Source: a virus
Virus genome (UHGV): UHGV-0211073
Direction: 5' to 3' (one strand)
DNA: 17,979 nucleotides
This document shows, one piece after another, positions 5,051-9,247 of the stretch (its first letter is position 1; each line of letters starts with the position of its first letter). The notes below the pieces were generated by a model. The model was not told where the DNA came from. It ran no database searches and saw only the letters and a list, made by a program, of their open reading frames with translations. The translations under genes were made by a program, and so were the position numbers.

Positions 5051-5082
5051 TGCCACCAGCTACTGAACGGTGGCATTTTTTT
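5051..5082 (+). terminator. Rho-independent terminator (stem TGCCACC / GGTGGCA, then T7)
   Basis: 7-bp perfect stem with 11-nt loop followed by TTTTTTT at 5076-5082. Sits between the upstream module and the 5179 operon. Confidence 0.6.
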
Positions 5083-5178
5083 GTGCTATTTGTTTCATAT
5101 TTTGCAATCACAATGATGAATGTTGCGTTTTATGAAACTATAATGACTGTTGTTTTATACAGTTCTAAGGGGGGCGTT

Positions 5179-5352
5179 ATGGCTATTTCAGTAAAGCCAG
5201 TATTGATAAGTGAGAAGCAAATGGAAGCGATAAAGAAAATTCAGGAGGAGCAGCGTAAAAAATCAGAGGTAGGAGTTGCGCCAACGATCCACGAAATTGC
5301 TCGGGGATTAATGGATAAGGCGCTGGCTTACACTTTAACTGGACGTGGGTAA
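5179..5352 (+). CDS. Small protein (57 aa), first gene of a three-gene operon; possible DNA-binding or regulatory protein
   Basis: ATG at 5179 preceded by AAGGGGGG. Candidate -10 TATAAT at 5140-5145 in an AT-rich leader. Stop 5350-5352 lies 4 nt before the next ATG. The ORF-track start at 5050 overlaps the terminator and is rejected. Confidence 0.45.
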   Translation: MAISVKPVLISEKQMEAIKKIQEEQRKKSEVGVAPTIHEIARGLMDKALAYTLTGRG

Positions 5353-5356
5353 ATTT

Positions 5357-6700: not shown

Positions 6701-8802
6701 TCTTACCGGAAGGTTTTGTGCTCGATGAACAACCTGATAACTCACAGTTTCCTGATAGTTCACAGCTTCCTGATGGTTTTGTGCTTGATGCCCAACCAGA
6801 ACAGCAGCAATCACCTTTGGTTTCACCAGAGGAAAATTCCAGACAGGAAAATGTTGTTAATAATGCTAACGGTTTCGACCGTTTTATGTATGGCGTTCTC
6901 AGTGGATTGATGGATGTTGGTAAAGGTGTTGGCCTGTTTCAGGATATGACACCAGAAGAGCAAGCCGCAATTCAGTCTCTACAGCAGAAGTTAGCGGCAA
7001 AACCATCAACCGCACAAGATGTTGGTGAGTTCGTTGGACAAGCAGCGCCATTTGTTAGTGGTGGTGGGATTATTTCTCAGGTTCCCAAAGGGGCGGCAAG
7101 ACTGGCTGCCGCCGTAGGGCTTGGTGCTGGAGAAGGGGCTATTGTAGCCAATGGAACAAATAGCGATGTTGCTTCCGGCGCTGCTATTGGCGCTGTGGCT
7201 GGCCCTGTAGCCGAACTTGCTGGCCCTGCAATTAATAAAATAGCTGGGAAATTAACCAAGAAGAATGTTTCTTCGATTCCAGATATTGAGGGGATTACTC
7301 CTGCCGAAGAGAAAATTCGTAAGTTATCTGCACAAGGCAACCCAAATCTTGCCTCTTCGCTTGAAGGGCTAGATCTAAAACCTCAGAAAGAAATTGTTGA
7401 GGCTGCAAATAGGCTTCATGTTGATTCAGTTCTTCCTTCTCATTTATCAGGAAATGAGCAATACCAAGCTGTAGAGCAAGCCCTAAAGTCACGGACAGGA
7501 TCAGCGTTAAAAGCTCAAGAAGATAAAGCAATAAGCGAATTAGCCTCTAGTGCTGACAAGATAATCGATGATGTTGCTGGTGCGCCAGATGCGTTAGCTA
7601 TGAGCGAAAAATATATTTATCAGATAAATAGTAGAATGGAAGCACTAAAAAACCGTAGTGATCAGTTATATAAACGTGTTGATTCCGCTCTATCACCAAG
7701 AACAAAAGTCGAAGCAAATAACACAAGCACTATGCTGGAAAAAATCGCTGATGATTTAGGAGGGTGGGATAATCTTGACCCAATAGAAAAGCGAGTTTTT
7801 ACAGCAATAAACCCCGGCCCAGATAGCATCCTAACGTATGCAAATTTAAACAGGCAAAGGCGTTTAGTTGGTGATGCCCTAAATAAAAAGCAGGGGCCAT
7901 ACAAAGATGCTGATAAAGAAGCGCTATCAAGACTATATGGAGCTTTAGCTGAAGACCAAAAATCTGTCTTATCCAATACTGGATACTTGCGAGATTTCGA
8001 AGTCGCACAACGCCTTGTAGCTATGAGAAAAAACTTAGAAAGGCAAATGGTAAATCTTCGCGGGAAAACACTTAATGGGGATATAGCGTATAAAGTAACG
8101 AATTCTCTTCAATCTATGGCAAAAGGTGATGCGAGAGGGTTTCGTGAGATTATGCAAAATACTCCATCAAGAACATTGCGAAGGGAGCTAGTAGGAACAG
8201 CATTAAGAGATATGCTTTCCTCTGGGAAGCGTGGGGCCGACTTTAATCCATCTGGCTTTGCAGATTGGTGGCAAAACTTGCAACACAGTGGACAGCTAAA
8301 GACTTTGGCTGAACATTTGCCAAAAGAAACAATGAGCGGACTATATGATGTATACAAAGTTGCCAGAGCAATAAAAAATGCTAAAGCGCATGAAATATCT
8401 ACTGGTAAGCTGAATGAGTTTGTAAACAGATTTAATCGGGTAACAGCTCCATACGAACTAGCAGCAAAACACATTCAAAAAATAGGCACGATGGTAGGCG
8501 CTCATTTTGGATCGCTTGGAGCCATTGCTGGGGCTGATATTGGAGCAAGATTGGCGAGTAAAGCTCGATTAGCTGGTGGAGCAGGGGCGGCTGATGCTGC
8601 GGATAAATTAATTGCCTCGCCAGCCTTCCAGAGCGCAGTAAAAAATCTACACGGAAAAGCGCCTGGGCACATTGTTGATTCACGTATCAGGCGCTCCCCT
8701 CAATGGAAGAGTTTTTTTAACTCTCTTCCTGAACAGGAAAAACGGACCATCGCCAGACTGGGCATCATTACTTGGCTATCTAATGATCCAGATAATGACT
8801 AG
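6685..8802 (+). CDS. Large hypothetical protein (705 aa) with N-terminal P[ED]GFVLD repeats and Gly/Ala-rich segments
   Basis: ATG at 6685 overlapping the upstream gene. N-terminus has 'LPEGFVLDEQP...LPDGFVLDAQPEQ'. Gly/Ala-rich stretches 'AAAVGLGAGEGAIVANG...AAIGAVAGPVAELAGPAINKIAG' and 'GAHFGSLGAIAGADIGARLA...AGGAGAADAADK'. No enzymatic motif seen. Confidence 0.75.
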   Translation: MAANVILPEGFVLDEQPDNSQFPDSSQLPDGFVLDAQPEQQQSPLVSPEENSRQENVVNNANGFDRFMYGVLSGLMDVGKGVGLFQDMTPEEQAAIQSLQQKLAAKPSTAQDVGEFVGQAAPFVSGGGIISQVPKGAARLAAAVGLGAGEGAIVANGTNSDVASGAAIGAVAGPVAELAGPAINKIAGKLTKKNVSSIPDIEGITPAEEKIRKLSAQGNPNLASSLEGLDLKPQKEIVEAANRLHVDSVLPSHLSGNEQYQAVEQALKSRTGSALKAQEDKAISELASSADKIIDDVAGAPDALAMSEKYIYQINSRMEALKNRSDQLYKRVDSALSPRTKVEANNTSTMLEKIADDLGGWDNLDPIEKRVFTAINPGPDSILTYANLNRQRRLVGDALNKKQGPYKDADKEALSRLYGALAEDQKSVLSNTGYLRDFEVAQRLVAMRKNLERQMVNLRGKTLNGDIAYKVTNSLQSMAKGDARGFREIMQNTPSRTLRRELVGTALRDMLSSGKRGADFNPSGFADWWQNLQHSGQLKTLAEHLPKETMSGLYDVYKVARAIKNAKAHEISTGKLNEFVNRFNRVTAPYELAAKHIQKIGTMVGAHFGSLGAIAGADIGARLASKARLAGGAGAADAADKLIASPAFQSAVKNLHGKAPGHIVDSRIRRSPQWKSFFNSLPEQEKRTIARLGIITWLSNDPDND

Positions 8803-8807
8803 TGAAT

Positions 8808-8821
8808 GGCCACGGATGGCC
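8808..8821. other. Short hairpin (GGCCA-CGGA-TGGCC) between convergent genes
   Basis: 5-bp stem between the 705-aa stop (8802) and the stop of the minus-strand gene (8822). No clear T-tract, so weak as a terminator. Confidence 0.3.
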
Positions 8822-9247
8822 TCAATCTTTATTCTTTGAAATAGAGTCATTGATCTTTTCGAAACACCAATGAAATCCACAAAAGAGAGCTACACCAATA
8901 TAACAATACAAAACTATCAACCACCTTTCAGTGTCCGAAGGGTAAAAAACATCAATTACATAAGCAACACCAATTGGTATTAATGCTAGTAATAACATCG
9001 ACACAGGACGTACAAACTTCTGAACTATATCAATTTTATAGAACCACAAGGCGGTATGTTTAATGATATAAGTAAAGATGGCTGCGCCAATAATGGCAAA
9101 AAACACCATCGATAAAGTCGGGTATAACTTTGCGACAATTAAACCCAACAAAATAATTATAACTGCCTGCCCCCTCACACCAACCCTCCCTTTAGCTTTG
9201 TTTAGAATGGCAATCATCATATATCCAAGACATGGCATTTGGTACAT
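8822..9247 (-). CDS. Small integral membrane protein (up to 141 aa, about 4 predicted TM helices), low-GC
   Basis: Hydrophobic stretches 'VIIILLGLIVAKL', 'MVFFAIIGAAIFTYII', 'MLLLALIPIGVAYVIDVF', 'LIVLYCYIGVALFCGF'. Visibly AT-rich relative to neighbours. Convergent with the 705-aa gene. Start uncertain (M1, M4, M10 or M11). Confidence 0.55.
   Translation of the reverse strand: MYQMPCLGYMMIAILNKAKGRVGVRGQAVIIILLGLIVAKLYPTLSMVFFAIIGAAIFTYIIKHTALWFYKIDIVQKFVRPVSMLLLALIPIGVAYVIDVFYPSDTERWLIVLYCYIGVALFCGFHWCFEKINDSISKNKD

Follow-up and report, generated by a model that had tools for sequence, protein, structure and literature searches.

P22-type ejection-protein genes behind a small satellite-specific leader gene in an EcCIMP1-like chromosomal island of Escherichia coli

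Introduction

UHGV virus genome UHGV-0211073, a stretch of 17,979 nucleotides that is here called the window, carries an operon for proteins of 57, 447 and 705 amino acids (aa) between positions 5051 and 9247, and the question raised by this locus is what the operon does. In an initial annotation, made from the sequence alone, no recognisable signature had been found in the two large proteins and the operon had been proposed as an undescribed anti-phage or competition system. The virion parts for breaching the envelope and conducting the DNA are commonly described as being stolen by satellites. In the present analysis it was found to be close to certain that the window represents a phage-inducible chromosomal island (PICI) of the EcCIMP1 kind and that the two large proteins are homologues of gp20 and gp16 of phage P22. 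For this window the outcome is mainly a correction, as the apparent orphans are P22-type ejection proteins in a PICI with a close relative described in 2025. New here is an EcCIMP1-like PICI at a different attachment site and with a reduced ejection-protein module of the Kapi1 type.

EcCIMP1 is a 19,963-bp PICI of E. coli MP1 that is excised and transduced only with the P22-like phage Kapi1 and has AlpA as its master regulator (Pick, Stadel & Raivio, ISME J 2025; PMC11773190). In that paper "DNA transfer" genes are drawn downstream of the primase, and a role in packaging was suggested for them without a test. Moreover, EcCIMP1 raises the superinfection immunity of lysogens to Kapi1, and the titres of Kapi1 after induction were not lowered (PMC11773190). 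For P22, a periplasmic and inner-membrane conduit of gp20 and gp16 has been modelled; this conduit is blocked by SieA, and SieA escape mutations map to gp16 and gp20 (PMC10883804).

Organization of the operon

The features of the operon region are as follows.

5051-5082, plus strand: intrinsic-terminator-like hairpin with an 8-bp stem (ATGCCACC/GGTGGCAT) followed by T7, core at 5059-5074 in the scan; closes the upstream primase/ori region
5083-5178, plus strand: AT-rich operon leader with TATAAT at 5139-5144 and the Shine-Dalgarno sequence AAGGGGGG ahead of the ATG; putative promoter
5179-5352, plus strand: conserved leader protein of 57 aa, aligned across 5 genera, with an AlphaFold (AF2) model; specific to the satellite lineage
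5357-6700, plus strand: homologue of the ejection (injectosome) protein gp20, 447 aa, with a conserved N-terminal domain and a C-terminal half of the Kapi1/L004 sequence type
6685-8802, plus strand: homologue of the ejection protein gp16, 705 aa, of the Kapi1/E212 sequence type and without an SLT domain
8822-9217, minus strand: small membrane protein of 131 aa (141 aa from the start at 9247) with about 4 transmembrane segments predicted by hydropathy; convergent with gene 16

The three open reading frames (ORFs) and their translational coupling agree with the initial annotation: a 4-nt gap separates the first two genes and a 16-nt overlap joins the second to the third. The same 16-nt overlap of genes 20 and 16 is present in the closest phage relatives, namely the phages Kapi1 and E212 and the phage contigs L004 and L005. 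The terminator was likewise recovered as a hairpin with its T7 tract. The end of the three-gene unit had been set at 9247, a limit that takes in a fourth, convergent gene which had not been counted. A TATAAT hexamer is indeed present in the AT-rich leader; as a promoter it did not hold up, for it was not called by a sigma-70 promoter scan and lacks an acceptable -35 box, and the region has no more promoter-like sites than chance would give (11 against 11.4 expected). The leader and the small gene together were found at a nucleotide identity of at least 90% in 501 of 5426 complete E. coli genomes (about 9%).

The two large proteins belong to the gp20 and gp16 families

The 447-aa protein is placed in the P22 gp20 family by its sequence matches. 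The match to Pfam PF16928, "DNA/protein translocase of phage P22 injectosome" (Inj_translocase), covers residues 12-219 (E 2.5e-73; 246.8 bits against a cutoff of 29.7), and phrog_917 is matched with an E-value of 4e-132. In pairwise comparison it shares 54% identity with P22 gp20 over residues 1-212 (E 2e-73), residues 1-60 being nearly unchanged, and 74.7% identity with gp20 of Kapi1. The two halves of the protein have different closest relatives: the C-terminal half is 100% identical at the aa level to that of phage contig L004 and 93% identical to that of Kapi1, and the N-terminal half shares 94% identity with that of another island, EC102. From P22 the island differs in sequence type both in the C-terminal half of gp20 and in gp16 (25% identity). 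The gene lies directly upstream of the gene 16 homologue that it overlaps, and the reported poly-Q run was located as QQQQQ at residue 68.

The 705-aa protein is assigned by profile search to the gp16-type ejection proteins of P22. It was matched over its full length by phrog_6704 (E 7e-175) and over residues 113-654 by phrog_770, "DNA transfer protein" (E 9e-51), which is the family of P22 gp16 itself (E 2e-266). No Pfam family, PF26808 (Phage_P22_gp16) included, was matched at E <= 0.01, and in BLASTP no pairwise similarity to P22 gp16 was found (E 0.49). The protein represents a separate gp16 sequence type, the one present in Kapi1 and E212. Its identity to the gene 16 products amounts to 79% for L004, 61-63% for L005 and 41-44% for Kapi1 and E212. 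The nearest non-identical relatives, P0002 (79%) and P0005 (61%), both come from genuine morphogenesis modules of the P22-like kind, in which the order is coat, gp4, gp10, gp26, DUF2824 (gp14), gp7, gp20, gp16. The tandem P[ED]GFVLD repeats described before were found as PEGFVLD at residue 8 and PDGFVLD at residue 29 and are common to the phage homologues, and the Gly/Ala-zipper-like segments correspond to a Gly/Ala-rich hydrophobic stretch at residues 136-183.

The profile matches overturn two statements of the initial annotation, that the large proteins have no recognisable signature and that no family can be assigned. Its remark that the composition resembles phage ejection or pilot proteins was exactly right. 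For the three operon proteins no NCBIfam match was obtained, and a sequence search of the PDB returned no solved structure for the 447-aa or the 705-aa protein. As a side observation, two E. coli proteins, P0003 and P0004 (559 and 579 aa), show 100% identity over 59% of the 705-aa protein; both additionally contain an integrase Arm DNA-binding domain and apparently arose by fusion in rearranged islands.

The 57-aa leader protein

Homologues of the 57-aa protein with lengths of 48-61 aa are present in Escherichia, Serratia, Klebsiella, Raoultella and Erwinia and share the invariant core GVAP...H.IARGL.DKAL. The gene was found only in satellites, where it stands in place of the phage genes 14 and 7. 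The ratio of nonsynonymous to synonymous substitution rates (dN/dS) is 0.08-0.19. In the AF2 model an extended N-terminus is followed by helices at residues 12-28 and 37-53 (predicted local distance difference test score, pLDDT, 75). The segment had been taken for helix-turn-helix-like; the modelled layout is strand-helix-helix instead, resembling that of ribbon-helix-helix (RHH) proteins, and the protein is probably DNA-binding. With the model as query nothing significant was returned by Foldseek, the best RHH match having an E-value of 8.7, and Pfam, PHROG and NCBIfam gave no match. An origin of the protein as a remnant of gp7 was also considered and was rejected, as there is no similarity to gp7 of Kapi1 or E212.

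The convergent membrane-protein gene

The minus-strand gene for the 131-aa membrane protein lies 19 nt after gene 16, and in P22 sieA lies 22 nt after its gene 16. A homologue with 47% identity, P0173, occupies the sieA slot of phage contig L005. The protein itself was rejected as a SieA homologue on sequence grounds: BLASTP against P22 SieA gave an E-value of 1.7, the motif FxRYPxEAxxFNK is absent, and neither a PHROG match nor a phage match in tblastn was obtained. It is a candidate superinfection-exclusion or moron gene, for which position and the phage homologue in the same slot are the support for exclusion. In the CX07 island a true SieA homologue occupies the convergent slot (E 8e-8 to P22 SieA, RYPGEA present). 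Gene 20, gene 16 and the slot gene thus derive from P22-like phages as a unit. A linkage between the type of gp16 and the type of membrane gene was considered and found unsupported, as the same gp16 type occurs with a SieA-like gene in CX07 and with a non-SieA gene in the VE-T10 island.

The window is a complete island permuted at its attachment site

The window is identical to E. coli PA45B (NZ_CP021288) with 0 mismatches, but circularly permuted: positions 1-12476 are the right part and positions 12475-17979 the left part of one island between yicC and dinD, with a length of 17,979 bp and integrated at the 3' end of yicC. When the empty site was constructed, it was found as one contiguous sequence in 4192 of 5426 complete E. 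coli genomes, and therefore the window comprises the island in full; in other strains the empty site exceeds the reconstruction by 2 nt. The island ends lie within an imperfect repeat of the yicC 3' end (CAGATTCA.. and CAGATCCA..), and the identical overlap at the join amounts to only 2 bases. A search of IMG/VR for the 30-mer across the attP-like junction, which would have been direct evidence for packaging of this island, found no match.

12475-12476, no strand: junction of the two island ends (attP-like), 0 mismatches to NZ_CP021288 and corresponding to L001 9446-9447 and 27425-27426
12678-13946, plus strand: tyrosine integrase of the island
15065-15283, plus strand: AlpA-family regulator (PF05930)
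1090-3441, plus strand: satellite-type primase (Zn-ribbon, Toprim and DUF5906), the N-terminal 351 aa being 85% identical to the EcCIMP1 primase

The gene order of the island starts with the integrase, a 216-aa gene, AlpA, a 143-aa gene, AntA/AntB, DUF4222, Ash and several small genes, and continues with the primase, two small genes, the ejection operon, an ImmA/IrrE peptidase with a small membrane protein, and PerC. The window thus has what defines PICIs of Gram-negative hosts, namely a terminal integrase, AlpA, a primase, a size of about 10-20 kb, defined att ends and empty sites elsewhere. The operon is located downstream of the primase of this mobile element, as had been noted before. For capsid, portal, terminase, tail and lysis genes no Pfam or PHROG match was found in the window, where the two ejection-protein genes are the sole virion-protein genes.

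Comparison with EcCIMP1, P22 and other satellites

The island shares with EcCIMP1 the integrase, AlpA, the 143-aa gene, AntA, DUF4222, Ash, the primase, the leader gene, the ejection genes and PerC, and the backbone proteins are 83-100% identical (92% for the leader protein). In contrast to EcCIMP1, which is integrated at tRNA-Thr, the island is located at the yicC 3' end, and the two integrases are just 28% identical. The C-terminal domain of the primase is DUF5906 in the island and DUF927 in EcCIMP1. As annotated for MP1 in RefSeq, the EcCIMP1 module comprises a small gene, then DUF2824 and a protein the size of gp7, and lastly a "phage DNA ejection protein" and a gp16 with an SLT domain, whereas the island has gp20 and gp16 only, without gp14 and gp7, and at 22-28% identity to those of EcCIMP1. 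Its types are much closer to those of Kapi1 itself (gp20 74.7%, gp16 41%). Furthermore, the gene after gp16 is convergent in the island and co-directional in EcCIMP1.

With P22 (Lederbergvirus) the island has in common the membership in the gp20 and gp16 families, the gene order, and a convergent small gene of the inner-membrane type right after gene 16. Unlike in P22, the genes lie outside a morphogenesis module, the 57-aa satellite gene takes the place of genes 14 and 7, the C-terminal half of gp20 as well as gp16 are of the other type, and the membrane protein is not a SieA homologue. The keeping of an own version of a structural component of the helper has parallels in Ccm of SaPIbov5 and in the tape measure protein of mycobacterial EPIPs (PMC12822802); those proteins concern capsid size or tail length, whereas the island proteins are internal, ejected DNA-delivery proteins.

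Exchange with phages, selection and broken copies

In Kapi1, E212, L004, L005 and P22 the gene order is gp14-gp7-gp20-gp16 followed by a convergent gene. Recent exchange of DNA between the block and Kapi1-like phages is evident at the nucleotide level: a stretch of 1267 bp, which reaches from the C-terminal half of gp20 across the initial ~520 nt of gp16, is 89% identical to Kapi1, and the identity is about 85% over another 270 bp at the 5' end of gp20. The modules of the islands are strongly mosaic, and the ejection proteins of EcCIMP1 have only 22-30% identity to those of its own helper.

The operon of small gene, gp20 and gp16 was found in other E. coli islands and in Serratia islands, so the three genes do co-occur across genomes and genera, as the initial annotation had required for its reading. 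Purifying selection on the module genes is evident from dN/dS ratios of 0.04-0.29 in all comparisons, pairs of islands included; for the Serratia islands L009 and L010 the ratios are 0.04 for gp20 and 0.11 for gp16. Islands with a disrupted gp20 or gp16 were observed as well (L006, 14781-15878; L017, 11803-13618; L036, L042 and L044), in which the gene is truncated or split and the leader gene and the rest of the island are kept.

Survey of islands with the leader gene

A contig search with the 705-aa protein alone had given no confirmed locus, whereas the alignment of the small protein did find loci. In total 75 leader-gene loci were surveyed, 15 from GTDB genomes and 60 from IMG/VR, and the downstream genes were classed by PHROG searches and by BLAST against reference proteins; the counts are not independent, as many loci come from related strains. 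Envelope-penetrating virion proteins follow directly after the leader gene in 72 of the 75 islands, which belong to about a dozen genera.

15 loci: P22 ejection proteins (gp20 and gp16, with or without gp14 and gp7) after the leader gene
15 loci: podoviral internal virion proteins as a triplet or quartet (phrog_418, 1044/992, 3003/342, 684)
11 loci: long tape measure protein with a 108-aa protein ahead of it
13 loci: phrog_7694 or short tape measure proteins that bear a transglycosylase, in many cases together with a baseplate hub and a small-terminase-like gene
9 loci: 566-aa lytic tail/tape-measure-like protein with a hub
9 loci: baseplate hub, with or without a small-terminase-like gene
3 loci: neither kind, one of these loci being truncated

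Where the upstream sequence is long enough, nearly every locus has a primase, with or without AlpA and integrase. None of the 75 loci has a gene for a Kapi1-like coat, portal or large terminase within its flanks, a marker test that is informative for P22-type helpers only. An E. coli island outside the set, 30COLEC, has a 223-aa protein without family assignment after the leader gene. In a preprint of December 2025, tape measure proteins were stated to be absent from satellites apart from two cases (PMC12822802); contrary to this statement, relatives of the island do carry them.

The contents of the slot are consistent with a common theme, virion parts that cross the envelope and conduct DNA. 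It is tentatively proposed, at somewhat short of even confidence, that the RHH-like gene marks a dedicated genome-delivery slot in this lineage of Enterobacterales PICIs, that each island holds envelope-penetrating proteins fitting its helper, and that satellites control DNA entry. The purpose of such a slot could be to pass the superinfection exclusion (SieA, HK97 gp15-type) of helper lysogens, the best recipients of satellites. In the literature searched, no paper describing this pattern of a slot for delivery proteins was found.

The LR-33 island (L018) is one of those with podoviral internal virion proteins; behind its last large gene stands a gene annotated as "Rap1a/Tai family immunity protein" (16538-16921), which hints at protection against the transglycosylase cargo. 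ORFs of 118-127 aa were observed in the same position in L021 (17991-18347) and in L022 and L023 (17335-17718).

Function of the ejection-protein module

The reading favoured here, held with rather better than even confidence, is that the region is an ejection-protein (E-protein) module of an EcCIMP1-like PICI that parasitises P22-like (Lederbergvirus) helpers and uses the module for the delivery of its own genome. For the delivery function taken by itself, the chances appear about evenly balanced. Upon induction of the helper, AlpA would switch on the island and the operon would be transcribed from the leader at 5083-5178, possibly under the control of the RHH-like protein. Island gp20 and gp16 would then be loaded into procapsids built by the helper, together with gp7 and gp14 of the helper, both of which the island lacks, and at the next infection their ejection would give rise to the conduit across periplasm and inner membrane by which the island DNA enters. 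Expression of the convergent membrane protein from the integrated island would keep competitors out. More speculatively, variable delivery proteins of its own may allow a satellite to choose or diversify its entry route and, for example, to slip past exclusion of the SieA type, the targets of which in P22 are gp20 and gp16. The best recipients of a satellite are helper lysogens, which often express such exclusion, and the selective reason for the module may lie in the entry step itself.

Several points weigh against this reading. Entry of island gp20 and gp16 into virions, and a need for them in transfer, are predictions, and the operon promoter and the RHH function are putative. Lacking gp14 and gp7, the island cannot supply the full set of E-proteins, and a fit to the helper capsid is not self-evident, given that the EcCIMP1 proteins differ so much from those of the proven helper. 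A disrupted E gene was found in about one fifth of the E-type islands examined (gp20 in VE-T10, L036 and L042; gp16 in strain 83972 and L044), and the module is therefore dispensable at least for maintenance. Moreover, the authors who described EcCIMP1 proposed a packaging role instead (PMC11773190).

That role, in which the products of EcCIMP1_017-019 and their counterparts here would redirect helper packaging to island DNA, accords with the position of the operon downstream of pri, the usual site of packaging genes in E. coli PICIs, and with the small-terminase-like gene in the same operon of relatives of the non-P22 type. It is nevertheless considered very improbable, as no terminase-like or Rpp-like domain was found in the three proteins with Pfam, PHROG and NCBIfam. 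Interference or exclusion, with island gp20 and gp16 poisoning helper or competitor virions or occupying envelope sites and the membrane protein acting as a SieA analogue, is unlikely but deserves more weight: EcCIMP1 does raise the immunity of lysogens to Kapi1, its E-proteins are of a different sequence type from those of the helper, the convergent slot of CX07 holds a genuine SieA homologue, and assembly-interference systems such as Tai are known beside pri in PICIs. On the other hand, the Kapi1 titres after induction are not lowered by EcCIMP1, the membrane protein by itself could account for the exclusion phenotype, and no PADLOC match was obtained; a gp20 N-terminal domain near-identical to phage versions, together with continued exchange with phages, is what would be expected of a working virion component.

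It is also rather improbable that the block is a passenger, that is, a P22-like piece of gene 20, gene 16 and the sieA-slot gene which was acquired by recombination and is without function or in which only the membrane gene matters. The missing gp14 and gp7, the pseudogenised E genes of several related islands and the very recent phage-island exchange would fit such a remnant; however, the operon with the same satellite-specific small gene is intact in divergent E. coli and Serratia islands, the Serratia island copies have dN/dS ratios of 0.04-0.11, and chance capture gives no explanation for delivery proteins of other helper types in the equivalent slot in 72 of 75 islands. Least credible of all, and contradicted by the homology, is the reading of the initial annotation, an undescribed anti-phage or competition system of three novel proteins. 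The location in the variable part of a satellite and the lack of matching defence models speak for it, PADLOC (PADLOC-DB 2.0) having returned 0 families for the three operon proteins and the membrane protein; by the same result a defence-system assignment of the operon was rejected, and the supposed anti-phage cargo found no support for any of the three genes. Against novelty, both large proteins are in characterised virion-protein families with their nearest relatives within phage morphogenesis modules, "DNA transfer" genes had already been drawn in EcCIMP1, and the real variable defence hotspot of the island is a slot further downstream (10123-11452), which holds ImmA/IrrE here, an Abi family protein in VE-T10 and Abi_2 or RnlA-RnlB in Serratia. 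The initial annotation had named homology to virion proteins inside an intact prophage morphogenesis module as evidence that would count against it; the homology is clear, and the genes lie in a satellite and not in such a module.

If the island proteins are used in transducing particles, DNA entry would be the third step customised by satellites after capsid size and packaging specificity. The pattern bears on the spread among lysogens of islands with virulence regulators (PerC/ANR-like) and defence genes.

Further features of the island

3618-4575, plus strand: genes for proteins of 76 aa and 245 aa directly 3' of the primase, no family match in Pfam or PHROG
4581-4684, no strand: iteron cluster with about 6 copies of GGTACAGGTGG, found in either orientation, between the primase region and the terminator
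10123-11452: ImmA/IrrE metallopeptidase, 125-aa membrane protein and convergent 143-147-aa gene, between the sieA-slot gene and PerC
11712-11999, plus strand: PerC-family protein (PF06069, E 2.6e-33; weaker match to the ANR family), 54% identical to EcCIMP1_025
17110-17187, plus strand: isrK RNA (Rfam, 67.8 bits, above the gathering score)
17250-17337, plus strand: C4 antisense RNA (Rfam, 79.9 bits, above the gathering score)

The GGTACAGGTGG iterons probably form a replication origin of the iteron type. The genes for the 76-aa and 245-aa proteins occupy the accessory region beside pri, where other PICIs have Tai (tail-assembly-inhibition) systems. The ImmA/IrrE metallopeptidase was matched by the PADLOC model capP (E 4.9e-25). 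EcCIMP1_025, the relative of the PerC-family protein, has been reported as a repressor of LEE1 expression (PMC11773190).

Within the unannotated stretch 9248-10122, the 14-mer GCGACAAGTACGCG at 9655-9668 recurs unchanged midway along the small-terminase gene of Kapi1, and it stands at the end of a noncoding block that is conserved in EcCIMP1 and three other islands. Two shared 14-mers were seen against 0.12 expected, and at least 2 were obtained in 1.5% of shuffles; the site may be a pac-site mimic, which is offered as a weak lead. Finally, isrK and C4 both lie inside the region of the 355-aa "Ash family" ORF, an arrangement of immunity RNAs of the P4/P1 type.

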